This document shows, in pieces, positions 27,101 to 64,000 of a stretch of 64,000 nt of DNA (its first letter is position 1; every line of letters begins with the position of its first letter). A program made the position numbers and the translations under genes. Origin of the DNA: Lottia gigantea. Taxonomy: Eukaryota. The notes beneath the pieces are model-generated. The model had not been told where the DNA came from. It was given only the letters and a program-made list of their open reading frames with translations, and did not search any database. The stretch spans positions 24,238-88,237 of the forward strand of contig NW_008709540.1 in the NCBI RefSeq assembly GCF_000327385.1. The letters run 5' to 3'.

Positions 27101-30100
27101 TTACACACTACGTTTCATCACTCCACATTGTCATCATCATCAGACTACTCCTTAGTTTTATTATACACTATGTTTCATAAGCTGTTATATCAAACAACAA
27201 TGAAATAGATCTGGTCATCAAAAGCCTTTATAAATGAATTTTATGTCCAACTTTCTATTCCAGTTTGGGTTAATGAAGATGGACAACAGCATGCAGTGTG
27301 CAATGTGGGCATTTTGCAAAAATAGTGAGAGCGTGAACTTGTAGCGTCTTGGTTCATTGTCTCATTGAATGACCAATGGATAAAAAACGAGCGTGATAGC
27401 TAGAATTTAGCTCTATCAGCTGGTGAAGCAAACTAATATTCTGCGTTCCATTAAATGGGAATATTTACCGTAGTTTCCAGAGACAGAGTTGATAATAACA
27501 TTCCTCTATCATACGACCATGCCTGTATTTCACCATCTTCTCTCACACTCTGAAATATATAGTAGTTAATAACATCATTCATCTTTTATAATAATAAATA
27601 TCTTCACTGTTAATAATAGTGCTCAATACACTAGTATAGCAACAACCACTAGGTCTAACAATTGTAGTCTAACTAATGGAATGTTTAACTATTGGAATGT
27701 CTAACTAATGGAATGTCTAGCTTTTGGAATGTCTAACTAATGGGAGAACACCCATGAAAACATCAGACTATTTTGTTTCTGTGTGGTTAAAACCATGCCC
27801 CCTTAGCAATAAAAAGATGGAACCGTGGTTCACTTTATCTAAAAATCCTCTTGAAGGAATCTCAATTCTTGCAATTTCTTTCCCCTGACCATTCCACAAA
27901 TTCTTTGAATAAGATTTAATAGGTTAATAACTTTCCCCCCTTTCCTACACCCAACAAAACTATAAGTATACTTACAATCAGAATATCTGAGGGTGTGGCT
28001 AAACACCCGATTCCCACAAACTGACCAAAGTGACTTGATTTTAATCTATTGGCACAAGTAGATTCATCAGGCGTATACAAGAATAACGAGCCCTGAAAAA
28101 TACAAAAATGGGGTTGGTCATTCTTACTGTGTCTTAGTGGAAAAACATGATGGTTTATTTTTTCCGACAATTGTTTTGAAATTTATGAATGGAGCTTTAT
28201 TGGACATGATATGAAGTTTCACATCAAATTGTTCTGAACCTTAGTCGAGATGAATTAGTTGTACAGTTCTGTTTCTTTTTGGGATAAAATATTGAAATGG
28301 CTTACTACAGCCTTTTTTTCTCCTGTTAGCTTATGAGGTATTGACAACAAATGCACATATAACTATATTTTTGAAGACTTTGCCTAGCGAACAAAACACA
28401 AGGTGTCTGATGTGACTATTTTATAAAATCAGTAATCAAATTTCAATCTTTACCTGACTAGAGCCGAGCACTATATTTTTATAAGATGGATTAAAACTCA
28501 TACTGGTAACTGGTTCACCGATAACACAATGTTCTAAGATACGGAATTCATTTCCTTTAATATCAATCAATCTCAGTACTCCATCCTGTAACAACAGAAC
28601 ATATTATACAAACTTTATTTTGAGTAATTTAACACTAGACACCACTCTTCCTGCCATATGACAAGCTTTCATTTCTAGATGATGTTGTGTAAATATTACA
28701 CCTTTCGGCTTCTGGTTGATAAATCCTAATATCAACTGTAACCAAATATCATGAATTGTTTATGAGTGCTTACCTCGCCTGCAGCGTATAGACCTTTTCT
28801 ATGTAAGCCTAGTGTAGTTAAACAGCCTTGTAATAATAGATTGTCATCCTCTTCAGCTGAAAGACAGACAGTAGCAGATTAAATACAGGAATCAGGTCAA
28901 ACAAATAATGTTAAGTAAAGAATAATTGACAGAGAAATTATTTCCAATTGACGAGGGATCTCAAATTTGCATAGCCTGCAGCACATAGGCCTCAATTTAT
29001 AGTCTTATTTAGATGCTTTTTCATGTCAGCCCCTCCAGCTGCATACCCGACAGTTAGAAAGGGGTTTGAACATCTGTAGGTATTATCTGGATTATTTTGG
29101 GATAGAATCCCTGATGTGATTTGATATAAATGATTATAAATCCTTTCAACCCTCGACAGGTTCACCTGCCACAAACTAATGCAATATATACCCGAATGAT
29201 GTCATTTTACTTTTATTACTTGGAGTTTATCGTACCTATTGGTTGTATATCTGTTAAAGTTGTTTTTCTACTACCAGGTTCTACGGCACTAGATGCTCGG
29301 GTATGAGCTGTTTCTGGTCGTTTTGGTGGATAATACATAACTCTAGCTTTAAATACTTCATCATTTACCTAAACATAGAGTGAACAATCTATATAAATAT
29401 ATCTCTAACTACCAATTAAGATTTGAGTTCAATTCTTCTAGTAAGTCATCAGTGGACATGGGTAATATATATATGTTTTGAACCCTTTCAAGAATATGGT
29501 ATAAATATTGTTTTGTATTACATGTAAATCGAAATTCTTTGGATTAATCTAATTGTTATTATGATAAACATTGCTTGTTAATCCGTTAACATCCAGCACA
29601 GTACTAAAGTGTTTACTTACTTTCAATAGTTGTCCCCCTTGACAGCCGATAAAAACATCACCTGTTGGTGTCCAGGCTTGTGAAACAGGTGAACATCGTT
29701 CTAGTTTATCTTGTATAGTTTGTAAATATTCTGTATTATCTCCTATCAGACCAGCAATGGCCGCTTTCGGTACGTCGACTGTATATCGACTCATTCTAGT
29801 GGAGGCCCGAGTTGGTGATCTATCTTGATCCTTTTCATCATCAATTTCTTGTGAGGGGTCAGCCACCGGTACTCGCACTTTACTATAATATAAAGGAATT
29901 TTATATACAACAAGTTCTAATTAAATAGAATGAATATAGACTACCAGTACCAAATAAACATCATAAGTCATGTGGACTATTAAAAAGATATGGAAACTTG
30001 ATTAATCAAGTCGCATAAACAGAAACCAAACCAAATCTTGCCTCAAAAAAGAAATGTGACTAAATTAAACTTCTAGATATTATTTTAGAGAACTGACTTA

Positions 30101-40192: not shown

Positions 40193-43100
40193 CTGAAATA
40201 AAATCAAAACATCATCAGTTAACATCAGATTAAACTGAAGCAGCTGAAGGATTTCATAATATACGTGAAATCATAAAATAAAAGGGATTGGTGTAGCCAA
40301 AATATATGAAAGTAGAATGCATGTTTGTAGGGATATGGCTTGAATAGGCTAAACACTGTGATATAGTGATACAACAGAAGTTAGGTGAAATGCAAGAAAG
40401 GCTTTTTAACCTAATTTCTTACGATAATAAAGTGATTATTATTAACAGTAATATTTTGGAATCTATCCCAATATAGATGAATTCTTTCGTCAATCCCCCA
40501 ATAGAGAGCTTAGTTAAAGTTCATACAATGCTTACGCCGATTTTTTGTTTTGTTAAAATATAAATAATTATCCTACCTTGGTTTCTGGTCCAGCTCGTGC
40601 CATGGCCTTTAATGTTTCTACTCCCAGAGCATTTACTTTATTTTCAAAGTTATTGATCTAAAATACAAAATAATATTGTGGTAATTACAAATACTCTCAA
40701 CAAAAATCATACATTTCAACCCTGTTGTGTTCATTAACTGGAGATTTGCCTTAAAAAATCTGGAGATTGGCCTTAATAAATTTGTGAATTATAACATCCA
40801 AATTGGTTTTTTTTCTTTTTTTTATCTTTTTTCTTTTAAATAAGCCTTAAGCTATGTAAATTATTTATGAAAGGCCTATTATAGGTCTATATGATGCAGG
40901 AAAAGTGAATTACAGCTACCCTTATTTTCAAACACACAAGACAGTCCATTGCAAGCTGTGTCAATAAATAAAGGTGACACAGTGACATTGAATGACTAAC
41001 CTACACTGATGTCCGGCAAAGGATATTCATCCTCGGTCATTTGAGCTGCCCTGCCGGTCATGTCTGGAAAATAGAGTCAAATAAATAACTGCCTAATAAC
41101 TCACCTCAATGGCTGCCATTCTCTTAGTTCTGTTTAATTCCAGTTCATTTTCTTTCCTTAAATAATCTATTTCATATCTTCTCATCTATAGAATCATATA
41201 GAGAGAATTAAATAATCTATTTCATATCTTCTCATCTATAGAATCATATAGAGAGAATTAAATAATCTATTTCATATCTTCTCATCTATAGAATCAAATA
41301 GAGAGAATTAAATAATCTATTTCATATCTTCTCATCTATAGAAATAAATAGAGAGAATTAAATAATCTATTTCATATCTTCTCATCAATAGAATCATATA
41401 TAGAGAATTAAATAATCTATTTCATATCTTCTCATCTATAGAATCATATAGAGAGAATTAAATAATCTATTTCATATCTTCTCATCTATAGAATCAAATA
41501 GAGAGAATTAAATAATCTATTTCATATCTTCTCATCAATAGAATCAAATAGAGAGAATTAAATAATCTATTTCATATCTTCTCATCTATAGAATCAAATA
41601 GAGAGAACTAAATATTCTATTTCATATCTTCTCATCTATAGAATCAAATAGAGAGAATTAAATAATCTATTTCATATCTTCTCATCAATAGAATCAAATA
41701 GAGAGAATTAAATAATCTATTTCATATCTTCTCATCTATAGAATCAAATAGAGAGAATTAAATAATCTATTTCATATCTTCTCATCTATAGAATCATATA
41801 GAGAGAATTAAATAATCTATTTCATATCTTCTCATCTATAAAAATAAAATAAGTGGTATGAATTAAATGAAATAAAACAGAAGCATAAGATATGACAATG
41901 TTTGATGCTATTGGGCAAATTTTAACTAAACGAGATTTCAAAAAGAATTCATGAGATTAAAGATGACCAGTGTAATAAACTGTCAATAATCAAAGAAACA
42001 AAACATCTAGATCTACAATGTAATCAGTTTGCAATGAGTTCATTCTGGAGTTAGTCTCGAAGATGAAGAATATTATCAGTAATATTTATATATCTAACTA
42101 ACCTGTATTTGAGATAGAAGTTTTGCATTATGTTCTATTGTCATTGCCTCCGCTTTTAATTTAGCAGCTGTAATATAAAACAAAATATCATGTGTAACTT
42201 TAATTAACATATATCATTACATTCTTTCAAATCAATCAAAATCTGTGATAGCTACATCATAAAATGCATTGTTTAAATGTAATCATAAAATCACAGGCAT
42301 CTGTCTGAAAATTGGAATTTGCAAATCGATACTACCACTTAATTTAAGAAATATCCGTGATGGACCCATTCAGGTAACCATGATTATATCTAAAGATTTT
42401 ACTTGATCAATTAAACCTTGAAGAAGTCTTTACTTATGATTCTAGTTCCAGTTGTAAATAAGTAAGGATAATCCAGGAAAGATCAATCCCTATAAGTTTG
42501 TCAAGTACCAGCTGGAATCCTTTTCTTTCTTTCAATCTTTTTCTACCTACCTTCAATTTCACTGTGACATTCTATCAGAGTTTTCTCAGCGTTGGCCTGG
42601 GCTTCAGCTTTCGCCTGCCCAGTTGATTCAACAGCTGCTGTCATTGCACATAATTCTAATAACTTTGTTCTCTCCCTTTCTGAGTTACGTTCATTAGCCA
42701 GTTTCTGACGTTCTAGGTTGCCCTTAGCGATTTGTTCGTTTCGTTGAGCTTCGTGTGATGCTGCTGCCTCCACAGAACTTGAAAACAAAACCAAGAAATA
42801 TCTCTGAAGTACATGTCTTTACCATAAAACAAAATATCTGTATCTTATTCTGTATTTTTACGAAAATTCAGTAATCTGATTGGATAATTAACTCAATTTG
42901 AAATCAATATCTATGATTGACATCTGTTTGAAGTTTTAAGAATAAGGTCCCAGAAGTTTACTAAAGTTATTGTATGAATATCATTATTATTCGGCAAGCC
43001 CTTTTTAGGATAAAATAGTCGTACCTAGTAGATATTTCTATAGCCATTTGAACTGATTTACTCAGTGAATCTCTCATCTTTCTATCAACAGGTTCAATAG

Positions 43101-46100: not shown

Positions 46101-49100
46101 AAAATAACAATGGAATACTGTAGAATGATACTGTTATACAGTGTTAAATCCTATAGGTTTGTTGATGGGTTTTACCGTAATTAAAATCAATGCAGAACAT
46201 ATAAATACTTAAATAATAACTGGCAGCTGGCTCAAGTAAATTCTATGTTTACTCCTAAGCATATAATAATTCATTTTAACACAGGTTTACAAAATACTTC
46301 AGATTTTTTGCCCAGCATTAACGCAATAAGCCATACTGGTTTTCTTTCATCTTAAATATTGTAAGAAATGGTGCTCATTTGGTTTACAAGTCAGATAAAT
46401 TAGACTACAATCTGCCTCTCTCAGTCCTCTGTATATTTTCTATTTGGTACGAATCTTACCTCTGTGACAGTATTTTAACGTGTATCGGTGGAATATATTC
46501 TAATGGTCCCGTTATCATCCATCTATCTCCAGCCTTTCTTATTACTTCCTCTGAAAACACAACTATTATGATTATTACTAAGGATTGTCACAACATCATC
46601 ATTAAACTTAAATAGAAGAACAAAAAATATTTATGTTTACCACAGATCTTTACAATATCAAGCTATTACCAAACACTATACAATGTCAAGCTATTACCAA
46701 ACACTATACAATGTCAAGCTATTACCAAACACTATACAATGTCAAGCTATTACCAAACACTATACAATGTCAAGCTATTACCAAACACTATACAATATCA
46801 ACCTATTACCAAACCCTATACAATATCAACCTATTACCAAACCCTATACAATATCAAACCATTACCAAACCCTATACAATGTCAAGCTATTACCAAACCC
46901 TATACAATGTCAAGCTATTACCAAACCCTATACAATGTCAAGCTATTACCAAACCCTATACAATATCAAGCTTTTACCAAACCCTATACAATATCAAGCT
47001 ATTACCAAACCCTATACAATATCAAGCTATTACCAAACCCTATACAATATCAAGCTATTACCAAACCCTATACAATATCAAGCTTTTACCAAACCCTATA
47101 CAATATCAAGCTATTACCAAACCCTATACAATATCAAGCTTTTACCAAACCCTATACAATGTCAAGCTATTACCAAACCCTATACAATATCAACCTATTA
47201 CCAAACCCTATACAATGTCAAGCTATTACCAAACCCTATACAATGTCAAGCTATTACCAAACACTATACAATGTCAAGCTATTACCAAACACTATAAGAA
47301 GAAGTTAATAGTTTGACATTGTGTGCCACAAAGGACTTAAATGTTAATAATTCATGTCATTGTGAAAACAAACCTTCCTCCAGATCATCTGTAAAGTCCT
47401 CTATTGCCTGTAGTACTAGAGTTTCATCAGCTGATAATATTCTCGTATTCTGTATTCCACTCTCTAGTTTCTCTCCTGGAACAATAATAATATAGGTAAG
47501 CAAACAAGCATCTCTCTTGTTAACTTGAAATATTTCAGTTATAGACAATCTGTACAGAACCAGTGATTGTTCTTCAATATATCCAACCATCACTGATGTC
47601 ATTATGACACAAAAAACATTACTAAATTAATTAAATAAACCAATAAATTAATGGCACACTACCCTTCTCAATATCTCCTATAAATATAAACAACACAATA
47701 CTGTCCTTTGCTCAACACAGTCTTCTCTACTCTACTCAATATATCCTATAAATATAACAACACAATACTGTCCTTTACTCAACACAGGCTTCTCTACCCT
47801 TCTCAATATATCCTATAAATATAAACAACACAATACTGTCCTTTACTCAACACAGTCTTCTCTACCCTTCTCAATATATCCTATAAATATAAACAACACA
47901 ATACCATCCTTTACTCAACACAGTCTTCTCTACCCTTCTCGATATATCCTATAAATATAAACAACACAATACTGTCCTTTACACAACACAGTCTTCTCTA
48001 CCCTTCTCAATATATCCTATAAATATAAACAACACAATACTGTCCTTTACTCAACACAGTCTTCTCTACTCTACTCAATATATCCTATAAATATAAACAA
48101 CACAATACTGTCCTTTACTCAACACAGTCTTCTCTACTCTACTCAATATATCCTATAAATATAAACAACACAATACTGTCCTTTACTCAAAACAGTCTTC
48201 TCTACTCTTCTCAATATATCCTATAAATATAAACAACACAATACTGTCCTTTACTCAACACAGTCTTCTCTACTCTACTCAATATATCCTATAAATATAA
48301 ACAATACAATACTGTCCTTTGACATTGGCATTTCGCCTGGTTATCTGAATCAGATCACAAACTTAGTTAACACAGTATAAAGGCTTGACTCAAAATCCTT
48401 TTTCTAAACCTATGAATAAGCTAGTGTTTTAAATGCTGTAGTACTTACCACACCAATCTGAGGTATTATCAGATCTGTTTGTTCACCAGTTACTAACCAT
48501 GCTTCACCAGGTAATCTATAAATACAAACAAATCAGACTCACATTTGTAAGATAAACCTATAAATATGATGTTTGTAGTAAATCATTTAGTAAGAGAAAC
48601 CTAATAAATATTATGTCTTTAGTTAATCATTTAGTACGGGAAATCTAACAAATATGATGTTTGTAGTAAATCATTCAGTAAGAGAAACCTAATAAATATT
48701 ATGTCTTTAGTTAATCATTTAGTACGGGAAATCTAACAAATATGATGTTTGTAGTAAATCATTCAGTAAGAGAAACCTAATAAATATTATGTCTTTAGTT
48801 AATCATTTAGTAAGAGAAATCTAACAAATATGATGTTTGTAGTAAATCATTTAGAGAGAGAAACCTAATAAACATGATGTTTGTAGTAAATCATTTAGTA
48901 AGAGAAACCTTATAAATATGATGTCTATAGTAAATCATTTAGTAAGAGAAACCTAATAAATATTATGTCTGTAGTTAATCATTTAGTACGGGAAATCTAA
49001 CAAATATGATGTTTGTAGTAAATCATTTAGTAAGAGAAACCTAACAAATATGATGTCTGTAGTAAATCATTTACTAAGAGAAACCTAATAAATATGATGT

Positions 49101-52100
49101 CTGTAGTAAATCATTTAGTAAGAGAAACCTAACAAATATGATGTCTGTAGTAAATCATTTAGTAAGAGAAACCTAATAAATATGATGTTTGTAGTAAATC
49201 ATTTAGAGAGAGAAACCTAATAAACATGATGTTTGTAGTAAATCATTTAGTAAGAGAAACCTAATAAATATTATGTCTTTAGCTAATCATTTAGTAAGGG
49301 AAATCTAACAAATATGATGTTTGTAGTAAATCATTTAGTAAGAGAAACCTAACAAATATGATGTCTGTAGTAAATCATTTACTAAGAGAAACCTAATAAA
49401 TATGATGTCTGTAGTAAATCATTTAGTAAGAGAAACCTATAAATATGATGTCTTTAGTTAATCATTAAGTAAGAGAAACCTAACAAATATGATGTTTGTA
49501 GTAAGAGAAACTTAATAACTATGATGTTTGAAGTAAACAATTTAAGAAGAGAAACCTAATAAATATGATGTTTGTAGTAAATCATTTAGTGAGAGTAACC
49601 TAACAAATATGATGTATGTAGTAAATCATTTAGTAAGAGAAACCTAACAAATATGTCTGTAGTAAGAGAAACTTAATAACTATGATTTTTGAAGTAAACT
49701 ATTTAAGATGAGAAACCTAATAAATATGATGTTTGTAGTAAATCATTTAGTGAGAGTAACCTAACAAATATGATGTATGTAGTAAATCATTTAGTTAGAG
49801 AAACCTAACAAATATTATCTGTAGTAAGAGAAACTTAATAACTATGATTTTTGAAGTAAACTATTTAAGAAGAGAAACCTAATAAATATGATGTTTGTAG
49901 TAAATCATTAAGTTAGAGAAACCTAACAAATATGATGTCTTTAGTTAATCATTTAGTAAGAGAAACCTAACAAATATGATGTCTGTAGTAAAAGAAACTT
50001 AATAACTATGATGTCTGTAGTAAACAATTTAAGAAGAGTAACCTAATAACTATGATGTTTGTAGTAAATCATTTAGTAAGAGAAATCTTTGAATATGATG
50101 TTTGTAGTAAAACATTTAGTGAGAGAAACCTTGTAAGAGAAACCTAATAAATATGATGTATGTAGTAAATCATTTAGTAAGAGAAACCTTTAAATATGAT
50201 GTTTGTAGTAAATCATTTAGTAAGAGAAACCATGTTATGTTCATAGTAAATGATGTAAGCATATCAACTGGTACCTGTGTTTTCCCATAAAGTCTGTGAG
50301 TCTTTCTGTGGCACCAAGATGATAGCCAGTGTCGGGGGTTAGGGTTATTTTTTCCTCCAGTCCAAGGAAGTTTTCATGAACTCCTTGTAGGTAGGCGCCT
50401 TGTTCTGTGATGTACCATTCTTCTCCTGTAACTCTCCTCCTGCAAATACAACTTTAGTCTATTGTCTACAAAACGATAAGAAATTTTGAATCAAGTTATT
50501 GCTCTATGGCAAGACAATGTAAACAGAAAAATTTATTGGTTATCGCCTTTTGTGTCAGTAAAAAAACCCTGAAAATGAACCTTTCGAGATCATTTTATGT
50601 TTTGGATATAAAATCCTCATCAGGACAGAGGTAATAATTGAAAAAGGAAGTTTAACTTACCTGCCACTACTATCAATACAGTCTTGTTTAGCAGATAGTC
50701 TTAAAACTTGATCCATTTTAATAACAACTGGTTCAACTATTTTATTTATTTCCTGTTTAAATATAACTTGTTATCATATACAACAATTCATTAAATATCT
50801 GGACATAGACAGGGTGATTCTAGGTGATCCAAACCATTTAGTTCAGTTTGCCACATTATTTTCATTACTTTGATATTTACACCATGTTTATACAAATTTT
50901 AGGAACAAACCCCCAGAAGCAGATAATATCTGTTTTTCATTCTATTTTCCCTTTCCCTGTCTTAAAGCATTTTGGATGTTTTAAAAACAAACCAACCCTT
51001 GTTTAACAGTCAGGTTTTAATAGATATAATACCTCCTTAAAACAAAAACTTAAATTTTCAAAAATTTGGCTGAAAAAATTGTTGTTTTGAAAGGGTTTGA
51101 CTGCTCTGTTCAACATCAGAACTATAAACTTAAAAATAAAAAGACAAAAGACTCACTGCCTCGACTGTAGGTATATAGGTGATGGGTCCTTCAATATGCC
51201 ACATATCTCCAGCACGACGGACCACACCTCCATCATCATGGTCTACCAGGGCTGTCACAGACAACGCATGATTAGCAGGAATTACTGGTAGAGGCTTGAT
51301 AGCACTGGAATAATCTTTGGATGTTTTACCAAAATTCTCAGCACCATACAGAGATTCACCTGGATACAGTGGAAATGGTTCCTGGAAGTGAAAAACATGT
51401 CTTACCTGTAAACCCTTCATTTGTAAATGAACTCATCAGAACTAAATTACAGTATACTCTGCGTAATCCGACATACATTGGAACCGCAAAAAAATGTCGG
51501 ATTAGCGAGAGTGTCGAAGTACTCAGAGTTTCAACATTTTTTAACATGTTACCATTTATAGCTCAATGACCCACATTCTATACACGGTACCTTTCTAATA
51601 ATAAGACAGTAATAAAAGACAATTCAGTTGTATACGTTACTATTATTTTGTACATTTTATCCAACTGATAGAAACAATGCCTGCTTGGACAGGTTCAATC
51701 TATGGAACAAGAGGTACAAGTATAATACCAACAAGATATAAGATGCTTCACTGACTGTGATGGTCTGAATTATTACTTGTAATGAAAAGTATACAAATTC
51801 TTACCCCATTCAGTCTAACTTCTGACTGACCCATTTTCAATTCACAGAACTTCCCAGCTTCATATTTACTAAAATATAACAAATTTATAGAATCAAATCA
51901 AAATTAATTTTACTTACTTTTTTTTGTAACTAATACTACTATAGCCCAACAAGGATCATGCAACAATACATGACATGATGCACAAGGGAATTCAGAGTTT
52001 CAAGTTTAAAATAGCCAGGAAAATGTTCCAATGATGTCAATATGTGGTATTTCCACCTTATTTCCATGATCTGAATAACTTGAATATACCTCATTGGATT

Positions 52101-54760: not shown

Positions 54761-55721
54761 GTTTTGAACTAAGTGACAAGGTGCGCTGATTTATAATACA
54801 TATATCAAATGTTTATTTTTCATAAGTAACGTAGGTTCGCCACTTTCATATCTTTATCCCTCTATGTGAATCCATAATCAGTCTTTGAACTTTAATCGGT
54901 ATTCAATTTATTTACAGGGGCATTACACACAATTTTCATTATCAAAAAACTTATACCTGAAAATATTTCTGAAATATGCCAAATATGCATAGTCATTAGT
55001 CCGAGTCTCAAAAAAGTGTGTTATAAAGAGTGGTCCAACTTTGTTTGGTCAGAGTTGTCATCATTTTAATTTAATTGTATTCGATTAAAAACAGAGTGTA
55101 CTAATTGTTAGTAAAACAGCTTTAGATTTTGGTATATAGTTTTCATAAATTGGCAGACTGTCTCATCAGGCGGAAAACTTAGGAGGTTGAGATTCAGAAT
55201 TCGACAGTTCTGTGGAAGCACATGAGCACAAACTTCCCCTGCTCTAGAGTTTGAGAGTGTTCTCCCACAAGACAATTAGGTCAAATCTGACACATTTTGT
55301 GGGACAAACCATTTATCTAGAGGGACATTACAATGAGAGGGGCCCCAACCCACTAAAGTCCGGGAACCCCCAATCATCTGGTTGAGCCCCTGTCCACTGC
55401 CTGTTTGTTTTCAGGTACGCCATGTGTTGTTTATAAAGATACACTTTGTATTAGGACTATAAAACTTGATCCCTAAAACTATCAAATAAATGGTATAATA
55501 TGAAGCCCCGAATAATAAAATAATGATGAAATATGGAATTCGATATTTTACTATCAAACTGTTGGTGAAATTAGATGATTTAATGTTAAAATCAATCTGA
55601 ACTAAATCTGTATAAATACTGGCTAGAATTCTGATGTGATCATCGGTTTGTGAAGATCAGTGTTGACTAACATCTAAATTTAACACAGAGTTAAAATCAT
55701 CTTCGATAATCCAATATCACC

Positions 55722-55896
55722 ATGTCTCGTCTAGTATTAGTTGGTGTATTTCTCCTAGTCCTGGCTAGTGTAGTTGATGGTAGTTCCAGTTCGTCTCGAA
55801 GATCAAGCAGAATTCGGCGTTTACCGAGTAAATCTATGAATCGATTCTTCAGAGGGCTGTGTTCAAGGTTCAGAGAGTCGGCTATAATAACAAATA
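55722..55896 (+). CDS. PAN/apple-like secreted protein, copy A, exon 1. It encodes a signal peptide (MSRLVLVGVFLLVLASVVDG) followed by a basic Ser/Arg-rich propeptide-like segment (SSSSSRRSSRIRRLPSKSMNRFFRGLCSRFRESAIITN).
   Basis: An ATG is followed by a hydrophobic core. Donor A|gtaagt at 55897 gives phase 1. The paralogous exon at 61457-61631 on the minus strand is ~80% identical at the amino-acid level. Confidence 0.7.
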
Positions 55897-56261
55897 GTAA
55901 GTAAAGGGCCTTTATATATTCTGTCATTCGCCGCTTCTTAGTTTCATCGTGTAAATTATACTGATCGGATAGAGGCAGATGTTTGAGATTATAAACATTG
56001 GTGATATCACTTGATTTGCAAACTGGCTAATCAACTCGCTTGTACGAAACCATTTTTTCGTTTTGTCTTGTAAATTTTAACACGACGCACGGAACTCGCA
56101 AAAAATATAAAAAAAGGGTTGTTTTACATGGTTGAAATTTACCGCCACATATGAAGCTATTTGTATAAAGTGACCCACAATCCTGGCTTTATATTAACTT
56201 GAGAAGGACAAAGTTTCTTTTTCACCATCGTAACCTGAAAGTTCCTGTTTATATTTTTTAG

Positions 56262-56740
56262 ATGAAGAGGAACCTATAATCACTGGAAGAGAGTCTGTAG
56301 TTCCCGAGATTACTTCAGCATCCCCTGTCACCGACCCTACTACCGTACCCCCTGCCACCGACCCCCCCACACCGAAAACTTGTGTGTATGTAATGAAGGA
56401 ATACCCTTCCACTGATGTCAAATCAGAGCTCGTTCTCCCGGAAATATTCAACATCACTCGAGAAGAATGTGAAGATATTTGTAAGAAGGACGCATCCTGT
56501 ATCGAAGTCGAATCCTTCGGCAGAACTCCAGTAAGGTGTACCCTTAATATGGGTCGTACCCGTCTAGCTGGGCTGAACGAGGCTATATGTTTATCTTCCT
56601 GTAAAACCAGACCCGAATGCTTTGCAATAAGTATACGTCAGATGAAATGTCAACACTTCAATCGTCTTTTCAACTCATCTGAGTTAATACCCGACGAAAC
56701 ACATTTGTCTAAGGTTTTTATGAAAGTATGCCAACATTAA
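56262..56740 (+). CDS. PAN/apple-like secreted protein, copy A, exon 2. It encodes a Thr/Pro-rich linker (TSASPVTDPTTVPPATDPPTPKT) followed by a Cys-rich domain: CVYV...EECEDICKKDASCIEVESFGRTPVRCTLNMGRTRLAGLNEAICLSSCKTRPECFAISIRQMKCQHF...KVCQH*.
   Basis: Acceptor tttttag| at 56261 with phase matching exon 1. The TAA stop is at 56738-56740. The joined CDS is 654 nt (217 aa). The Cys spacing and the hydrophobic/Gly pattern are PAN/apple-like. This domain assignment was made by eye and should be confirmed by a profile search. Confidence 0.65.
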
Positions 56741-57947
56741 TATAAATATCAGACTAGGGTTTTTCATTCAAAGCATGCATGACTTTCGGGAAATGCTAAA
56801 ACATAAATATCAAACTGAATTTATTGTTTCGAACGCCAAACACCATACCAGATTTGAAAAGTTAGCCCCAGTTTCAAAACTTGCTATCCTGACGAAGATT
56901 GTGTATCAAAAACACATCAGCCTAGACAGCATGATATCAGCTTAAATCAATGAGCTAACTTTAAGTCATTTAATGAAAGGTTAACCCCTTTCCAACACTA
57001 GCTGTTCTGACGAGGACTGTGTATCTGAAACACATGTCAGCAGTATGATCTATGAACTTTAGTCAAATAATTCCAGAATGTATGTATTTAAAATGTTAAT
57101 TATGAAGAACCCACAACTGATATTGTTGTCTACCAAAATAAATTATGTATCTCAGATATAAGCGTTTTATTTTTTCCAAAAATCCGCTGTCGAGAGCTTT
57201 GTCATTCCCAACTCAAACAACACTGGCAATAATGTCGCCTGGTCAATCGTGGATCAGCTATCATTATGTCATGCACCAGGGTAATGTTTTCCGGAATGAG
57301 TTACTGTTGAAAGCCTTCCTGGACGTAGAGATCAAGTCAGTATGTTTCTTTGTTGGATTTCGGGAAAGGGAGGGTTTGATTCTCCCAAATATACAGGCCC
57401 AGGATGGAACAAATACTTCATTTACAACTTGGAATAAATGGTCTGGAACTGCTGGGAATTTTTCTTAGTTTTTGATCTAAAAACGATAAGATAATATATC
57501 ACCCAAAGGCGAGAGATTAGATTGTTATATACTAATGGGCTTTAGTTTGCTATGAACAAGGTATTCATATACATCTTGTTTTTTTATATGCGACAATTAT
57601 TTTTTGTTGAATTTCTCTTGTAGACCTTCATAATGGACATGGACTATTTTACTTGCTGGTGGTATAGAATGAGATAACAAAAGGTGCGTTAACTACATTA
57701 TGGTGAAAATTCAGTCCTATAGGCCGTGGCTATTAAGCGTCTGAATCCAATGGGCCACCCTGGCCTGACAGAATTTCATAGTTTCATCTTCTGGTAGGTC
57801 AATTAATATGCGCTAATGAAGGTTAGAATAAGATCTTCTAATGAATGGTCGTCCAAGTTTAAATGATAAGAAACGGGTTTGTCTTTCTTTAATGTGATAT
57901 CTGATCTATGAGCTTTAAACCGAATGTCTAGATAATACATTCGGATT

Positions 57948-58170
57948 CAGTGATGCAGGTAAGAGGGGCTGACATACAAAAAACGTCTAGCCGTTCGGGT
58001 GGGACAATAAACCAAGACCCGTGTGCTACAGGCTGTGCACATTAAGGATCCCTCGACAGTTGAGAATCGACAAAAAGCAGCTGTTGTCTTGGCAAAATTT
58101 CCCTCATTGCACCTTGCTTGGCGTTGCCCGTCTTCAGTTGCCCACACAGAGCAGAAAAGTAAGACGTAGA
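57948..58170 (+). mobile_element. 5'-truncated copy of the same SINE family. It has no tRNA head.
   Basis: Co-linear with 61165-61385 at high identity. Confidence 0.55.
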
Positions 58171-58599
58171 GATCAAGTCAGTATGTATCTGTGTTGGATT
58201 TCGGGAAAGGGAGGGTTTAATTCTCCCAAATGTACAGGGAATGGGAACTCCATTCATTTCATTTTGTAAACTTTGTTTGGATAAATTCTTACATGAAATT
58301 AAGTAAATTTTATTCGAGCATTCACAGGTAAGATGCTCCTGGATCAAGTATCTTTTCTTCATAGATTTATTTAAGAAATAGAGAGTTTCAGATATATATG
58401 AGCGCTTTTGCATCTATACGACAGACATAGGTCACTACTTATCGAGATATTTCGATATAAAGTCTATTCTTAGCTGATATCTTCGTTAAGGTAGAACTGT
58501 TTATGATTCGTAACAATCGTTTAGAGTACCCACGCTCTTTTAGTTTAAAGAAAACTAACCCTGGTAATAGTAAATTTATTTTTATACGCCCACATGAAA

Positions 58600-59000
58600 T
58601 AAGGTCGTATATTGTCGTCACCCACAATTGGTCGTAAACACTCTAGAAGGCACAATTCTTGACGAATTTTGACGAAACTTTGTATGATTGTCTATTAATG
58701 CCCAAAAATGAACCCTATTGAAAATCAGAAAAATTGAAAAATATTTAGTATGAATTATTGCCCTTGTTCGTAAAATGCTCGTAAACACTCTTGAAGGTGC
58801 AGTTCTTGACAGATTTTGATGAAACTGGGTGTGAGAGTTTGTAATCACCCAAGGATGAACCCTATTGAAAATCAGAAAAATGGAAAAATATTTAGTATGA
58901 GTTATTGCCCTTGTTCTTGAAAACGCGTTCAATTTTTAGCTCGTAAACATTCTAGAAGGCACAGTTCTTGACGGATTCTGACGAAGCTTGGTAATATTAT
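58600..59000. repeat. Tandem repeat with a unit of about 149 bp in about 2.7 copies, lying between the convergent PAN-like genes.
   Basis: 'ccctattgaaaatcagaaaaat[tg]gaaaaatatttagtatga[ag]ttattgcccttgttc' recurs at 58712 and 58861. 'ctcgtaaaca[ct]tct[at]gaaggc[ac]ca[ag]ttcttgac[ag]…' recurs at 58640, 58785 and 58940. Confidence 0.75.
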
Positions 59001-59869
59001 TCAGTATCCCCAAACAAAGTTCAAAAGAAGTGTATGACTGAAGGTTGAACATTTCATACTGGTGATTGTTACTGTACTGCCGAATATTTTTATTTAAAAT
59101 CAAAGCTGCCAGTGGGCGTATATTACCTTGCCTGGATATTATGACACATAGAATTCTATCTCTTATTACCCGGCTGTTAGTCTGTCATATACCTCCGGGT
59201 AAGCCCTGTATTCAGTGGTTCAACGAGATGAGTGATGGCCCAGGGACTTAAGTGGGTTGAGGCCCCTTCCCCGGGAAATTTGATTTTTAATATATGATTT
59301 CCTGCATTCTGAGTTACCTCTAGCTGTTGGTCAATTTAATGTAAGATTTAAAGATATTCACTCTGCAGTTAATGATTATTCTGGGAGTGGGGCCTCCTTA
59401 TGGGAGGGGGACGCGTGGACTTAATACAATCAGTCACTATAATAGTTGAGGCACTGCCTGTGTTGTTGAATGTTTATCTCTCTACAAGTGTAGACACCAT
59501 GTGTTCACATGAAGTATTCAGAAAACAGAAATAAATAAAAAATAAAACGCTTATTTGAGATAATTAATTTGGTAGACAACAATATCAGTTTTTGGGTTCT
59601 TCATAATTAACATTTTAAATACATACATAGTGGAATTAAATTGTCTAAGGCTTATATACACAATCCTCGTACAGATAATGATGAACATGTGGAATTATCT
59701 TGGGTAAAGTCATGTTCTTTAACAACGGTACAATGATTATTCACATCTAACTGATCATTATCATCGTACCGTTGCTAAAAGAACATGGAGTAAAGTATGG
59801 TTTCAGAACAATGAAATTAGTATCTTTACAATGTCGTCTTATACCTTGACTGTAATATCCACCTTACAT

Positions 59870-60045
59870 TGCGGAATGTAGCCATTTCATTGGATTGTAT
59901 GCCAGAGAATACAGCCAATCAGAGTCTCGATGGAAAGACTGTAATCCTTATGAATTATATCTACAGACTTTCAGACTTTGAGGCCTCTGATTGGTTGTAA
60001 TCACTAGCGTAGAGACCAATCAAATCTCTGCATTTGTTGACCCCG
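59870..60045. mobile_element. Second full hairpin copy of the 'gattggattgtac…acagccaatca' MITE-like family. It lies ~240 bp 3' of PAN-like copy B.
   Basis: See the 2040-2175 entry. Confidence 0.5.
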
Positions 60046-60281
60046 GTATTGTCAACAAACAAATTTCTATTTATGGGATAAGAAGGTTTGGTTGGCCTCA
60101 GGTTATACCTGTGGAAGAGAGAAATAACACAGTTAATTTCAATACAAGATCTTTTTTTTACACAGCATAACCTGTACCCGGTTACATTTTTACAAACTTC
60201 TGTAACACACGAAAGATGGCTATTGCAATCAAGGTATATAGCTTAACATTATCAAGATGGAAAATCCGAGACTGATATTCA

Positions 60282-60793
60282 TTATGCAGTTAGAGGTAGA
60301 CATATTTTGAGATACATGTACGAATCATTGCGTCGTTGTAAATCCGTTGTAAAGAAAGCACGGTTATAGTGTTTACATGTGATCCCATGCGAGCTAGCTT
60401 GAAGACAGGCAGGGTTGGCCATACAGGAGGATGCACACGAATCCGCGGACTCCCCAGTCAGACGGATAATACCCATGTTTAGGGTGCATCTTACTGGAGT
60501 TTTACCGTATGATTCGACATCGATACAGGATACGTTCTTATCACAAATATCTGTACATTCTGCTAAAGTGACGTTGAAGACTTCCGGGTTAATGACCTCT
60601 GGTAGTACTTCCGTATTGTTCTTCATCCCATAAAAACATCGCTTCGCTGCTGTCTCGGTCCCGTTAGACCCGGTGTCTATGATAGGCTCGGTGGTAGTGG
60701 GGACGGTAGAGGGCTCAGTAACAGGGAGCACAGTGGTAGACTCCAGACTAGTTTCGAGAACTACAGACTCTCTGCCATTGATAACAGATTCAT
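60282..60793 (-). CDS. PAN/apple-like secreted protein, copy B, exon 2. It encodes a Thr/Pro-rich linker followed by a Cys-rich domain: RCFYG...AECTDICDKNVSCIDVESYGKTPVRCTLNMGIIRLTGESADSCASSCMANPACLQASSHGITCKHYNRAFF...KICLPLTA*.
   Basis: Acceptor tttttcag| at 60794. The TAA stop is at 60282-60284. The core motif 'C.DIC.K..SCI.VES.G.TPVRCTLNMG..RL.G' is shared with copy A. Confidence 0.65.
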
Positions 60794-61032
60794 CTGAAAA
60801 AAAACCGAAACAGTAATATTGAGGTGTTTATGTAAAATAGTGGCGTATTACAAAACGTTACATATCAACCTTCGTCGTCGAAACATCTCCCTATAAGTGC
60901 ATAGATGGGACCGTGGTTCACATAATCCAAATAGCTTCGTATGGTTAGTTGAGATTTAAGCCAATCTAATTTTCACAATCGAAAGAACATGGGGCCTTGA
61001 AACATAGTCCCATCAGAATGACAAGGACCTAC

Positions 61033-61390
61033 ATCTCAGGGGTCAGGGGAAACACGGTTGCTCGGTTAGTTAGAAGCTTGCTCGTTAACCTGTAGGTCCA
61101 TGGTTCAATCCCGGCATTGGTCGAGATAATACCTTGGGATATTTCAACCAAGTTTTCCCCTGTCAGTGATACAGGTAAGAGGGGCTGACAAGGAAAAAGC
61201 GTGTAGTATGGGACAATAAACAGAGGCCCCATGTGCTACAGGCTGTGCACGTTAAAGACACCTCGACAGTTGGAAATCGAAAAAGAGCAGGCTAATGCCG
61301 CTGTTTTGGCAAAATTTCCCTCATTGCACCCTTCATGGTGTTGCCCGTCTTCACTAGCCCACATGGTGCAGAAAAGTAGTACGTAAATCT
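61033..61390 (+). mobile_element. tRNA-derived SINE, full-length copy, inserted in the intron of PAN-like copy B.
   Basis: The 5' head has pol-III box A/B-like motifs (…gctcggttagttagaagc… and …ggttcaatcccggc…). The body (…cagtgatacaggtaagaggggctgaca…ggcaaaatttccctcattgcaccc…tgttgcccgtcttcactagcccacatggtgcagaaaag) recurs at three other sites in the window. It is absent from the orthologous intron of copy A. Confidence 0.6.
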
Positions 61391-61456
61391 GATAAACACG
61401 ACCTAATAGACTTCAAATCCTCGTTAAATAAAAGATAGAGGGGGTCATTTACTTAC

Positions 61457-61631
61457 CTTCTGTTCTTATAGCCGACTCTCTGAACAGTGGACACAGCCCT
61501 CTGAACAATCCACTCATAGGTTTTCTCGGTGAACCCCGAATTCTGCTTGATCTTCGAGACGAACTGGAACTACCATCAACTACACTAGCCAGGACTAGGA
61601 GAAATATACCAAGTAATACTATACGAGACAT
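61457..61631 (-). CDS. PAN/apple-like secreted protein, copy B, exon 1. It encodes MSRIVLLGIFLLVLASVVDGSSSSSRRSSRIRGSPRKPMSGLFRGLCPLFRESAIRTEG, a signal peptide plus propeptide.
   Basis: Donor G|gtaagt at 61456, phase 1 as in copy A. The 5' flank (61632-61900) is an inverted near-duplicate of the copy A promoter region (55440-55721). Confidence 0.7.
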
Positions 61632-62882
61632 GGTGATACTGGATTATCGAAGATGATTTCAACTCTGTGTTAAATTCAGATGTTAGTCAACACTGATCTT
61701 CACAAACCAATGATCACATCAGAATTCTAGCCAGTATTTATACAGATTTAGTTCAGATTGATTTTAACATTAAATCATCTAATTTCACCAACAGTTGGAT
61801 AGTAAAATATCGAATTCCATATTTCATTATTATTTTATTATTCGGGGCTTCAATATTATACCATTTATTTGATAGTTTTAGGGATCAAGTTTGTGTGAAT
61901 AACAATTTTACTGCTCACAAATAGAGTGTACCTGGCGGCGACAGTGGGGGTACTGGGGCATTTACCTCCCTAGAAAAATGGTTTGCACCTCCAGAATTCA
62001 GAATACAGGAAAGGATATGTTAAAAATCAGATTTCCCGGGGAAGGGGTCCAAATCCACTGAAGACTACAGCCCTCAATAATATATTTGAGCCACTGAACA
62101 CTGAGCCCACGTAGAGTTAATGACAGATCAACAGTGGGGTACTAAGATATAGAATTCTATTTTTCATCAATATTGTATGAAATGGGCTGTATATTATCTG
62201 GGTTGGTGGAATAGTTCTCAGCCTAAATGGGATATCTTAATTGGATTGAAAAATTGGATTTTCCGGAAGCAATCAATGACATAAAAACAGTATTAGTGTC
62301 TTTGTACCACGACTGTACGATTGTTTTCTAAAAACTGAAAGAGCATGGATTCTCTAAACAATTTTTGAGAAATATAGAAAGAGATAGCAGCTAAGAACAG
62401 GCTTTATGTTGAAATATCTCCAAGTTTATAGAGTGCCCCATGTCTGTCAAATAGATGCAAAAGTGTTCATTTATATATCCGCAATTCACTATTTTTTAAA
62501 GGGACTAGTGCACTATTTTTTTTTGACCAATAATACTTTAGTCTCAGGAACGGGAATTTTTTAGCTAAGCAAATCAGTAAAAGCGTTCAAAGCTCATCGT
62601 CGAAATTTGAGCCTTAAAATCCATGTGTATCAAGAATTATCCGCGTTTCAATGTTAAAATGACGACTCGTCAATTTAAGATACTCTGTGATATATAGAAA
62701 ATATATATATAGAAATAGTGAGTAAAATTCCTAGTTTGATGTATTAAAAGGAATTATGCGATTTCATATATTCAAGACTAAAATCAACGCCCCAAAATAG
62801 CGCGTCTGTCACTTTAAGTATCTCAACGAAGAAAAGGTACATTATCCAGTAGCATCAGACATGTGAAGATTTACTTAATTTC

Positions 62883-63060
62883 GTGTCAAAATGTCCCAAA
62901 CAATATGTAGGAGAAACTAGAAATAATTTACTCACTCGTTTTACGGCTCATAGATCAGATATCAAGTTAAAGAAAGACGAGACAGTTTCTAATCATTTCA
63001 ACTTGGACGACCATTCATCAGACGATCATATCCTACCCCCCTTTGAGAGCATAGTAATTG
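62883..63060 (+). pseudogene. Fragment of a GIY-YIG endonuclease-like domain (…CPKQYVGETRNNLLTRFTAHRSDIKLKKDETVSNHFNLDDH…). It is probably a remnant of a Penelope-like or other GIY-YIG-bearing transposable element.
   Basis: The motif spacing Y-V-G-E-T…R…R…(E/A)H…(~10)…V…HF… is characteristic of GIY-YIG. The ORF is short and is not associated with an RT ORF in this window. Confidence 0.35.
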
Positions 63061-63935
63061 ACTTGCCAGAAGATGAAACTACAAAATTCTGTCAAGCTGG
63101 GGAAGAAATACATCCGATGTGGCCAAGTCAGACTTCCACCTGTTTCCCAAAATCAAAAAGGAGTAAGACAGTCGCCATTACCCTATCCTAGCATCGCTGG
63201 CAAAAGAGTGAAAGCCTTGGAGAAGCTCGTGTAGTGCTTCTCAATCGGGTTCCAAATGCATAGGTGTGGGGGTGGTTTTGGGGTACAGACTGGTTTGCCC
63301 GAAAAGGGTTGAGATGTTGGGCGAAGTCCGCTATTTTTCGGTGAATTTTCTTTCAGAACTTAATTATTTTTAGAACATCACCCAAAAACATTACTTGTCT
63401 GACCGAGATTTATGTCGGTGCCCGAAAAGATAATATTTAAGCTGTTCCTTGTTTTATGTTTATTCTAGGTGGTATTAATAAGAAACCATGGGTCCAGTTT
63501 TCAAAACACATCAATACATTTTTGGAAAAAAATAAAATTTGAGACAATTAATTTATTTTGGTAGACAACAATATCAGTTTTTGGGTTCTTCATAATTAAC
63601 ATTTTAAATACATACATTCTGGAATTAAATTGACTAAAGTTCATAGATCATACTGCTGACATGTGTTTCAGATACACAGTCCTCGTCAGAACAGCTAGTG
63701 CTGGAAAAGGGGTTAACCTTTCATTAAATGACTTAAAGTTAGCTCACTGATTGAAGCTGATATCATGCTTTCTAGGCTGATGTGTTTTTGATACACAATC
63801 TTCGTCAGGATAGCTAGTTTGAAAATGTATTGTCTTACAAAAACTGTCCAAATCTGGTATGGTTTTGGGCGTTCGAAACAATAAAGTCGTGCATGCTTTA
63901 TATGAAAAAACCCTAGTCTGATATTTATATTGAAG

Positions 63936-64000
63936 TTAAGGTAGGCACATTTTCATAAAAACCTTAGACAAATGTGTTTCGTCGGGTATTAACTCAGATG
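63936..64000 (-). CDS. Third PAN/apple-like family member, copy C, 3' end only: ...SSELIPDETHLSKVFMKMCLP*. It is truncated by the window edge.
   Basis: The reverse complement of 63936-64000 is near-identical to copy A positions 56680-56740 (SSELIPDETHLSKVFMKVCQH*). The downstream ~380-bp flank (63540-63935) is an inverted copy of A's 3' flank (56741-57140). Confidence 0.55.
   Translation of the reverse strand, partial: SELIPDETHLSKVFMKMCLP

Follow-up and report, generated by a model that had tools for sequence, protein, structure and literature searches.

Mosaic divergence in a small family of predicted secreted PAN/apple-type protein genes of the limpet Lottia gigantea

Gene models and layout of the locus

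The DNA analyzed here, a stretch of 64 kb from a Lottia gigantea scaffold (hereafter the window), contains three two-exon paralogues that we rebuilt from the sequence. Genes A and B are complete, and gene C is present only as its 3′ tail. The coordinates of the three genes, the protein lengths of 217 and 228 residues and the core motif given in the initial annotation all match the rebuilt models. A and B are inverted relative to each other and lie 5.5 kb apart; the remaining 55 kb of the window contain no further copy. The features of the locus are the following:

55722-55896 and 56262-56740, plus strand: gene A, 217 aa, with its ATG at 55722
55462-55721, plus strand: promoter and 5′UTR of gene A, part of the block common to A and B, with TATAAATA at 55611-55618, 104 nt upstream of the start codon
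55722-55896, plus strand: gene A exon 1, predicted signal peptide (residues 1-20) and basic Ser/Arg-rich segment (residues 21-58) with one Cys
55897-56261, plus strand: phase-1 intron of gene A, 365 nt long, GT..AG boundaries
56262-56740, plus strand: second exon of gene A, coding for residues 60-97 (Thr/Pro-rich linker) and 98-217 (10-Cys domain with two putative PAN/apple-type modules), stop
56741-57183, plus strand: gene A 3′ flank, probable 3′UTR, with AATAAA at 57137-57142
59537-59656, minus strand: element in the gene B 3′ flank common to A and C, with sequence identity to both
61631-61457 and 60793-60282, minus strand: gene B, 228 aa, donor GTAAGT, same intron phase as A
60282-60793, minus strand: gene B exon 2, linker and 10-Cys double PAN-like domain, stop
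60794-61456, minus strand: phase-1 intron of gene B, 663 nt long, containing an interspersed repeat (about 61121-61390) that enlarges it
61457-61631, minus strand: gene B exon 1, predicted signal peptide and basic segment, RIRG where A has RIRR
61632-61892, minus strand: promoter and 5′UTR of gene B, part of the block common to A and B, with TATAAATA at 61742-61735
63518-63935, minus strand: 3′ flank of gene C, a copy of the gene A 3′ flank in inverted orientation
63936-64000, minus strand: last 21 codons and stop of gene C (stop codon 63936-63938), the remainder lying past the window edge

The motif TATAAATA, read directly from the sequence, is a TATA motif. The phase-1 intron of gene A has a GTAAGT donor and a T-rich tract before its acceptor. 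The repeat within the gene B intron has other copies at 58024-58168, 18337-18495, 28940-29091, and 4044-4129. The element in the gene B 3′ flank is 84% identical to positions 57051-57175 of A and 92% identical to 63553-63645 (family D3); the last 125 nt of the gene A 3′ flank are also found in the 3′ flank of B, at 84% identity. Insertions of transposable elements (TEs) are dense around the locus.

The protein of gene A is 100% identical to LOTGIDRAFT_233800, gene B corresponds to LOTGIDRAFT_233801, and gene C corresponds to LOTGIDRAFT_164172 (P0002), whose C-terminus matches the translation of the tail in the window. The three public entries carry the label hypothetical, and in UniRef A and B go under the name "Apple domain-containing protein". 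The public model 233801 splices out of exon 2 of gene B, where we observe a 170-codon open frame that aligns with A throughout and keeps 10 of the 10 cysteines, and the public model of C (164172) is annotated without exon 1. Since the genes are already annotated, the family is better described as uncharacterized than as undescribed, as had been proposed.

We searched 5.8 billion clusters and 1.84 billion representatives for members of this family and found three proteins, all on this L. gigantea scaffold, with no homologues outside it. The family thus appears restricted to this scaffold, in agreement with the lineage-specific cluster suggested initially. The N-terminal cassette was likewise found in no other Lottia protein searched. 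We found no mention of 233800, 233801, or 164172 in the literature; the three identifiers are absent from the supplementary files examined for the two papers on the shell proteome of L. gigantea, and the report on pedal-mucus proteins of Patella vulgata (PMC7333891), with the supplement examined, mentions neither these identifiers nor an apple domain. The architecture of these genes had been likened to that of venom, antimicrobial, and effector families, and we found nothing linking them to venom, immunity, or any tissue.

Predicted secretion and relationship to PAN/apple domains

The proteins have the secreted-type architecture that had been described, in which a hydrophobic N-terminal h-region is followed by a linker rich in Ser, Thr, and Pro and by the 10-Cys domain. 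In gene A, the mean hydropathy over residues 4-18, corresponding to the h-region, is 3.17, and residues 21-59 carry a net charge of +9. Two dibasic sites had been noted in this basic segment; the RR at residues 26-27 is common to A and B, but B has RIRG in place of the furin-like RIRR found in A. The number of cysteines, given previously as 9-10, is 10 in all three proteins, and they follow the invariant pattern C-x28-C-x3-C-x5-C-x12-C-x16-C-x3-C-x5-C-x9-C-x26-C, which is in register with PAN modules in the alignment; the core of such modules consists of two nested disulfides with an optional outer pair. The domain looks like two PAN modules, a clear one followed by a degenerate one. We infer disulfide pairing within the domain, the outermost Cys pair probably bridging both modules.

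The assignment to the PAN/apple superfamily, already proposed in the initial annotation, does not come from the direct Pfam search suggested there, in which the PAN matches of A, B, and C all fall below the gathering thresholds. The best scores are 13.7 bits for A (PAN_4), 15.6 for B (PAN_3), and 19.2 for C (PAN_3), against cut-offs of 21.1-27. Several Pfam PAN models match the three proteins weakly at the same positions. However, the nearest non-Lottia relatives of the family profile carry PAN_1 or PAN_4 well above the Pfam cut-offs (P0004, PAN_1 44.1 bits versus 21.4; P0005, PAN_4 41.9 versus 27; P0008, PAN_4 107.8 versus 27). Comparison with PAN by hhalign gives 96.4% probability (E 1.3e-9) for module 1 and 41.6% (E 2.7e-4) for module 2, with four Cys in register, and in A and B both modules are detected, with E-values of about 1e-10, by an HMM built from PAN modules of the non-Lottia proteins. 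The combined profile matches the solved apple domains of factor XI, kallikrein, MIC4, SML-2, and MIC5. There is some circularity in this profile evidence, since a match to the Lottia profile was what selected the intermediate PAN proteins.

The predicted order of secondary structures in module 1 (strand, helix, hairpin) fits a PAN domain, whose fold is an antiparallel sheet with a packed helix. The AlphaFold2 models are of low confidence (pLDDT 42.4 and 46.5), and a Foldseek search of the PDB with the predicted model returned only noise. Altogether, transitive profile evidence and the UniRef name support, indirectly, that the Cys domain belongs to the PAN/apple superfamily.

Divergence among the three copies

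The inverted-repeat arms at 55501-55910 and 61443-61852 are 94% complementary, which agrees with the inverted duplication reported for A and B. With gaps allowed, the block common to both genes (55462-55905 versus 61892-61448) covers 445 bp at 94.6% identity. Similarity ends abruptly upstream of 55462, and outside the block the flanking identity falls to 34-42%, as between unrelated sequences. In the introns, the only alignable stretches are 9 nt next to the donor and some 29 nt next to the acceptor. The 5′ flanks are near-identical, as had been noticed, with 97.3% identity over 261 columns of upstream non-coding DNA.

Exon 1 is less conserved than this flank, with 90.3% nucleotide identity versus 97.3% (Fisher p=0.002), corresponding to a 3.6-fold difference in divergence (9.7% versus 2.7%), a contrast which a strongly constrained promoter and 5′UTR could inflate. 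Codons are identical at 44 of 59 positions (75%), so that the amino-acid identity of exon 1 is high as claimed, although below the figure of about 80% given. All 17 nucleotide differences in exon 1 are non-synonymous; the absence of synonymous changes has P=0.003 at the synonymous fraction of exon 2, and the number of differences has a Poisson p of 9e-6 at the upstream rate. By the Nei-Gojobori method, the A/B comparison gives a dS of 0.011 and a dN of 0.115 in exon 1, and a dS of 0.61 and a dN of 0.40 in exon 2, with ω around 0.66 for exon 2 and 0.93 for the C-terminal half. Exon 2 is far more diverged, as first described, with 68-77% identity in nucleotides and 44% in amino acids. All of these rate contrasts, and those with gene C below, involve small counts because they come from two full sequences and one protein, with the non-coding flanks as neutral proxy.

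The abrupt edges of the block, the 97.3% identity of its non-coding part, and the dS of about 0.01 in exon 1 versus about 0.61 in exon 2 point to recent gene conversion or partial duplication and not to purifying selection over a long time. As every difference in exon 1 replaces an amino acid, conservation of the so-called propeptide is not seen; compared with its neighborhood, no part is less conserved than this pro-region. The near-identical starts of A and B, initially interpreted as a conserved promoter, signal peptide, and propeptide, are therefore most likely the result of recent copying between neighbors and not of a specially preserved secretion cassette.

The 3′ ends and flanks of A and C also match in inverted orientation. 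The 3′ flanks are collinear, with about 94% identity in aligned columns (24 mismatches in 405 bases, 5.9%). The 65-nt coding tail contains four differences, all non-synonymous and all within the last five codons. There are two replacements in the 39 codons of the linker and 31 in the 118 codons of the Cys domain (26%), and the two proteins differ by a 9-residue repeat indel. The dN of the Cys domain is at least 0.146, a lower bound with C taken as a protein and its DNA from the window tail only; replacement change per site is thus at least 2.3 times the divergence of the 3′ flank. The comparison of this minimum with the flank value of 0.059 suggests a ratio above 1, and the contrast may reflect positive selection or another conversion mosaic. 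The diversified mature domain announced in the initial annotation thus finds partial support between A and C, where the Cys domain changes amino acids faster than the non-coding flank changes, but not between A and B, whose exon 2 has a dN/dS of 0.66 and not above 1.

Part of this pattern recalls the effector superfamilies of cone snails, with purifying selection on promoter, signal peptide, and propeptide, and diversifying selection on the mature PAN domain. This reading, that of the initial annotation, would account for the drop in amino-acid identity from 75% in exon 1 to 44% in exon 2, for an ω of 0.66 in exon 2 that is high for a pair at a dS of 0.6, and for the clustering and lineage restriction of the genes, and the at least 2.3-fold replacement excess between A and C is near that of conotoxin mature-region exons, which is 2.9-fold (bioRxiv 10.1101/107672). 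We nevertheless consider it unlikely: exon 1 diverges 3.6 times more than its upstream flank by replacements only, the block edges and the dS of about 0.01 fit recency and not constraint, the RIRR of A is lost in B, and ω stays below 1 in exon 2 of A/B. Furthermore, there are only three members, whose N-terminal cassette occurs in no other Lottia protein, and we know of no venom or gland context for a grazing limpet.

The copies might instead be ordinary duplicates, young and old, drifting under relaxed constraint, some of them perhaps becoming pseudogenes, and the replacement excess would then be noise from small counts combined with a constrained promoter. The ω values of 0.66 and 0.93 between A and B are compatible with such drift, as are the loss of the furin-like site in B, the mis-spliced or alternatively spliced public model of B, the annotation of C without exon 1, and the crowding of TE insertions. 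However, open frames, 10 cysteines, an FN[IV]T sequon, and consensus splice sites are kept in A, B, and C, along with the TATA box in A and B, and relaxed constraint, with an ω of 1 at most, cannot yield 17 replacements and no silent change against 2.7% flank divergence. This scenario appears quite improbable to us.

The L. gigantea assembly was made from a heterozygous animal, and mis-assembled haplotypes, or open reading frames that are not genes, could in principle mimic a small gene family. Differences in 56% of exon 2 residues between A and B, and in 26% of the Cys domain plus a 9-residue repeat indel between A and C, are far past allelic variation. Introns, flanks, and TE content differ among the copies, and conservation is seen in the two-exon structure, the phase of the intron, and the register of the cysteines, which makes an artefact of assembly or annotation very improbable.

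Proposed history and comparison with known systems

We propose, as the probable explanation, that these genes form a family of at least three secreted glycoprotein genes, restricted to Lottia gigantea and shaped by local duplication and inversion, recent exchange between paralogues, and fast protein evolution. A and C would be the close pair and B the old member (dS about 0.6). A resembles B only in the 445-bp block from promoter to exon 1, and C in the linker, C-terminus, and 3′ flank; this mosaic would have arisen by recent non-reciprocal exchange between neighboring paralogues, through gene conversion or partial duplication. Selective preservation of a secretion and propeptide cassette would not explain the pattern, given the sharp block edges, the low dS, and the replacement-only changes in exon 1. 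Replacements would outpace nearby non-coding changes in the basic segment between A and B and in the PAN domain between A and C, so that these would be fast-evolving extracellular proteins.

Exon 1 would encode the signal peptide and the cationic Ser/Arg-rich segment, and exon 2 a Thr/Pro-rich, mucin-like stalk followed by the 10-Cys domain. The glycosylated stalk would display a PAN module locked by disulfides, and this module would bind an extracellular ligand, either a carbohydrate or a protein. The PAN/apple domains of factor XI and prekallikrein bind proteins and heparin. That of the small secreted leech protein LAPP binds collagen (PMC7191736). By analogy with these domains, we infer extracellular ligand binding by the limpet module.

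A bolder hypothesis, which seems rather doubtful at present, is that of a limpet-specific family of secreted PAN-type binders, of which the three genes would be the visible part, with recurrent positive selection at two separate sites, the cationic N-terminal segment and the PAN domain, and with a module for expression and secretion kept uniform by exon-scale gene conversion. If true, it would be an arms-race family, involved in immune recognition, interaction with microbes or algae, or gamete recognition, whose modular evolution resembles that of toxin superfamilies. Should the replacement excess hold, the locus would offer a compact lophotrochozoan case of gene conversion and positive selection acting on different segments of the same genes, and a model limpet would gain a candidate for a fast-evolving binding protein of the PAN type. 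The present gain is an uncharacterized, lineage-restricted PAN/apple family and the correction of one public gene model. No major question is opened or settled. As recent copying, and not a preserved cassette, is the most likely reason why the genes start almost identically, we regard the locus as a modest evolutionary curiosity and not a new kind of system.

Regarding known systems, the limpet proteins share with the PAN/apple superfamily (factor XI, prekallikrein, the N domains of plasminogen and HGF, MIC4, SML-2, and EtMIC5) a C-x3-C-x5-C-x9-12-C core with outer Cys, the predicted strand-helix-hairpin order of module 1, and an extracellular location, predicted in the case of the limpet. Tandem modules also occur in SML-2 and MIC4. 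They differ in their sub-threshold direct Pfam scores and in packing two modules into some 120 residues, the second module having no N-terminal Cys of its own. LAPP, from another lophotrochozoan, is also a small secreted protein of similar size in which a PAN domain comes after a non-globular N-terminal part, and indicates that a lone PAN module can act as an effector (PMC7191736), but it contains a single PAN domain, and PDB sequence searches gave no match between LAPP and the limpet proteins. A limpet, being a grazer, is also not known to have any anti-haemostatic need.

As in conotoxin superfamilies, different exons encode the signal and mature parts, the paralogues form a cluster, the cysteine framework is retained despite rapid replacement, and the mature domain is more diverged than adjoining non-coding DNA in the A/C comparison. 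Conotoxin signal exons, in contrast, are more conserved than adjoining non-coding DNA (10.1101/107672), whereas limpet exon 1 is more diverged than its flank. The limpet family also differs by its three members, its mature domain of about 120 residues instead of a short peptide, and its lack of a conserved processing site. Gene conversion between close inverted paralogues would account for further features, namely a sharp-edged, near-identical 445-bp tract that runs over non-coding and coding DNA, in two inverted paralogues that are otherwise old and are separated by 5.5 kb. The A/B tract differs from ordinary gene conversion in its unexpected excess of replacement changes.

Gene models and their surroundings

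The cluster consists of two-exon PAN/apple-like paralogues, of which A and B are complete and the third, C, contributes its 3' end. The models of A and B combine a reading of the sequence with rebuilt splice junctions, and, together with the end of C, they agree exactly with the copies reported in the initial annotation.

Genes of the cluster
55722-55896 and 56262-56740 (+): gene A, exons 1 and 2, separated by a 365-nt phase-1 intron with donor GTAAGT; 217 aa
61631-61457 and 60793-60282 (-): gene B, exons 1 and 2, separated by a 663-nt phase-1 intron with donor GTAAGT; 228 aa
64000-63936 (-): gene C, final 21 codons and stop of the third copy

Searching 5.8 billion protein clusters returned three proteins and no more, all on one 2.16-Mb Lottia gigantea scaffold: LOTGIDRAFT_233800, which is 100% identical to A, LOTGIDRAFT_233801, which corresponds to B but is spliced differently at its 3' end, and LOTGIDRAFT_164172, which is C, annotated with exon 2 only and showing 75% identity to A. 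The genes are thus publicly annotated yet uncharacterised, and the family is not an undescribed one, which had been raised as a possibility, the PAN assignment already being present in UniRef, where A and B are named 'Apple domain-containing protein'. No mention of the three locus tags was found in a literature search.

In the public B model (LOTGIDRAFT_233801, 198 aa), exon 2 is cut short by a GTAAGA donor within it (60493-60495, -), made by conserved Pro-Val-Arg codons, and is spliced to an exon further downstream (59774-59652, -). This exon codes for a tail of 40 unrelated residues, and five of the ten conserved cysteines are lost. Unspliced, B exon 2 keeps an open frame that can be aligned with A and C over its full length, so that the public model represents either an alternative isoform or an error of annotation.

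Repeats and other features of the window are listed below.

Other features of the window
61121-61390, 58024-58168, 18337-18495, 28940-29091, 4044-4129: interspersed repeat of ~160-270 nt, with five or more copies across the window
55338-55392, 59213-59315, 61995-62063: short repeat 'ggggccccaacccactaaagtc...', immediately upstream of the promoter block in both A and B, and present between the genes as well
62883-63191 (+): ORF fragment with a weak GIY-YIG nuclease match (E 0.0057, under the Pfam cut-off)
57763-57926: second, inverted copy of the GIY-YIG-like fragment (83%)
58626-59017: 147-nt unit in the A-B spacer, two tandem copies and a partial third, 74-82% identity
18641-19461, 19729-20542, 24439-26142, 30297-31154, 41158-41840, 46651-47296, 47659-48320, 48542-50231: minisatellite arrays
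5151-6167 (-): 338-aa ATG-initiated single ORF, rich in Pro, Ser, Arg, and Tyr

One copy of the interspersed repeat, at 61121-61390, is inserted in the B intron and accounts for much of its extra length; ARAGORN tRNA and Rfam scans of 55000-64000 gave no match, so this copy cannot be classed as a tRNA-derived SINE. The GIY-YIG-like fragments are probably remnants of a transposable element bearing this nuclease, perhaps Penelope-like, that flank the gene cluster. The short-repeat copies beside A and B point the same absolute way despite the inversion of the genes, and thus fall outside the duplicated block. The minisatellite arrays (periods of 24-161 nt, 10-37 copies, 78-97% matches) are long, well preserved, and strikingly dense; they take up much of the sequence between 18 and 50 kb and are a source of long spurious ORFs. 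The 338-aa ORF, which has no Pfam match, may be an exon or a gene that lacks introns.

Protein architecture and PAN/apple assignment

In both A and B, an initial MSR leads into a hydrophobic stretch of 15 residues (mean hydropathy ~3.2) with VDG at its end, and this into a cationic Ser/Arg-rich segment with one cysteine and a net charge of +9 in A and +6 in B. Exon 2 encodes a linker in which Ser, Thr, and Pro make up 41-54% of residues, and a C-terminal domain of ~120 residues with ten invariant cysteines, spaced C-x28-C-x3-C-x5-C-x12-C-x16-C-x3-C-x5-C-x9-C-x26-C. An FN[IV]T sequon is kept in all three proteins. Because neither the A nor the B protein has a hydrophobic tail at its C-terminus, their natural reading is as soluble secreted glycoproteins.

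The C-terminal domain had been called PAN/apple-type. Tested directly against Pfam, it gives only sub-threshold matches to PAN_1, PAN_2, PAN_3, and PAN_4, the best scoring 13.7-19.2 bits against cut-offs of 21.1-27, but the call is upheld by indirect profile evidence. When 1.84 billion representatives were searched exhaustively by HMMER with a three-sequence domain profile, the Lottia proteins ranked first and were followed by three metagenomic proteins, P0004 (E 2.8e-8), P0005 (1.5e-7), and P0008 (2e-4), with no closer relatives outside Lottia. The family is therefore apparently lineage-restricted, as initially proposed, the protein searches returning the three Lottia gigantea proteins. The three metagenomic proteins score 44.1, 41.9, and 107.8 bits, respectively, with PAN_1 or PAN_4, far over threshold, although evidence obtained through them is partly circular because they were selected by their match to the Lottia profile. 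In profile-profile comparison with their modules, the first Cys core of the Lottia domain matches with 96.4% probability and the second with 41.6% (E 2.7e-4), all four cysteines of the latter being in register. A model built from the non-Lottia modules alone finds two modules in A and two in B, and a combined profile matches apple domains of known structure from factor XI and plasma kallikrein, as well as the microneme proteins MIC4, SML-2, and MIC5. Given the consistency of these indirect profiles, the domain is likely to belong to the PAN/apple superfamily, its first module being probably clear and its second probably degenerate; the outermost cysteines may bridge the two. AlphaFold2 models reached a pLDDT of 42 with a 3-sequence alignment and 46.5 with a 12-sequence alignment, and a Foldseek search of the PDB with the latter returned noise only.

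Similarity mosaic and rates of change

The initial annotation read the promoter, signal peptide, and propeptide as a conserved cassette. A and B share a block from promoter to exon 1 (55462-55905 versus 61892-61448) with 94.6% identity, whose edges are abrupt in a gapped alignment, identity being 34% upstream and 42% on the intron side, past the first nine intron bases. Elsewhere the introns cannot be aligned, that of B carrying the interspersed repeat, and the second exons show only 68-77% identity. Nei-Gojobori dS is 0.011 in exon 1 versus 0.61 in exon 2, about 50-fold apart, and the non-coding part of the block (~260 bases) is 97.3% identical. Constraint does not account for this pattern: purifying selection on the signal peptide and propeptide cannot yield near-identical silent and non-coding sites beside saturated introns. 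A recent non-reciprocal transfer between the two paralogues, which are inverted and 5.5 kb apart, could explain the block, either by gene conversion or by partial duplication, and the apparent cassette is best explained as recent gene conversion. TE-like sequences upstream of A and B were also considered as part of the duplicated block; these copies share the same absolute orientation though the genes are inverted, which places them outside it.

Within the block, divergence is greater in coding DNA: exon 1 has 17 differences over 175 nt, the upstream part 7 over 261 nt (Fisher p=0.002), a rate that would predict 4.7 for exon 1 (Poisson p=9e-6). All 17 change an amino acid, in 15 codons, and the chance of finding no silent change among them at the exon 2 silent fraction is 0.003. 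Three of the replacements lie in the signal peptide and the remainder in residues 33-59; charge is altered by 8 of the 15, and the furin-like RIRR of A is RIRG in B. Patchy old divergence was rejected as the origin of the exon 1 differences: with silent sites as diverged as those of exon 2, the 26 most diverged codons should contain about eight silent differences, and they contain none. Given this excess of replacements, the 'propeptide' is not conserved, and relative to its surroundings no stretch changes faster.

For exon 2, ω between A and B is 0.66 overall, with values of 0.47 for the core and 0.93 for the C-terminal half, which is high for an old pair and not above 1. Between A and C, the linker shows two replacements in 39 codons and a 9-residue repeat indel, the final 16 shared codons are identical in DNA, and the 3' flank has ~94% identity in aligned columns (5.9% divergence). 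The Cys domain, between linker and C-terminus, has 31 replacements in 118 codons, with a minimum replacement divergence of 0.146 per non-synonymous site, at least 2.3 times the divergence of the 3' flank and six times the linker value (Fisher p=0.002 versus linker). As most of the C DNA is outside the window, this contrast could alternatively be a conversion mosaic. The family shows signs of rapid protein evolution.

Possible function and comparison with conotoxins

Neither the supplements of the two L. gigantea shell proteomes nor a Patella mucus adhesion study list the identifiers of A, B, or C. By analogy with PAN/apple modules of other proteins, most likely a glycosylated secreted stalk would present a disulfide-locked PAN module, which would bind an extracellular carbohydrate or protein. 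Microneme lectins bind carbohydrates. The PAN/apple domains in factor XI and prekallikrein have proteins and heparin as ligands, and that of leech LAPP binds collagen (PMC7191736). More speculatively, the rapid replacement may reflect pressure on an interaction interface, in immunity, from microbes or algae, or between gametes.

What stands of the initial interpretation is a real family, of secreted type, PAN-like, apparently lineage-restricted, and with signs of rapid evolution; the apparent cassette is best put down to recent gene conversion, and the toxin-like model fails in two of three testable features. In a conotoxin study that serves as benchmark (bioRxiv 10.1101/107672), signal exons diverge less than the non-coding DNA beside them, and divergence in mature exons is ~2.9 times greater. 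Exon 1 of the limpet genes shows the reverse, being more diverged than its flank, whereas the mature domain compared between A and C behaves like that of conotoxins.
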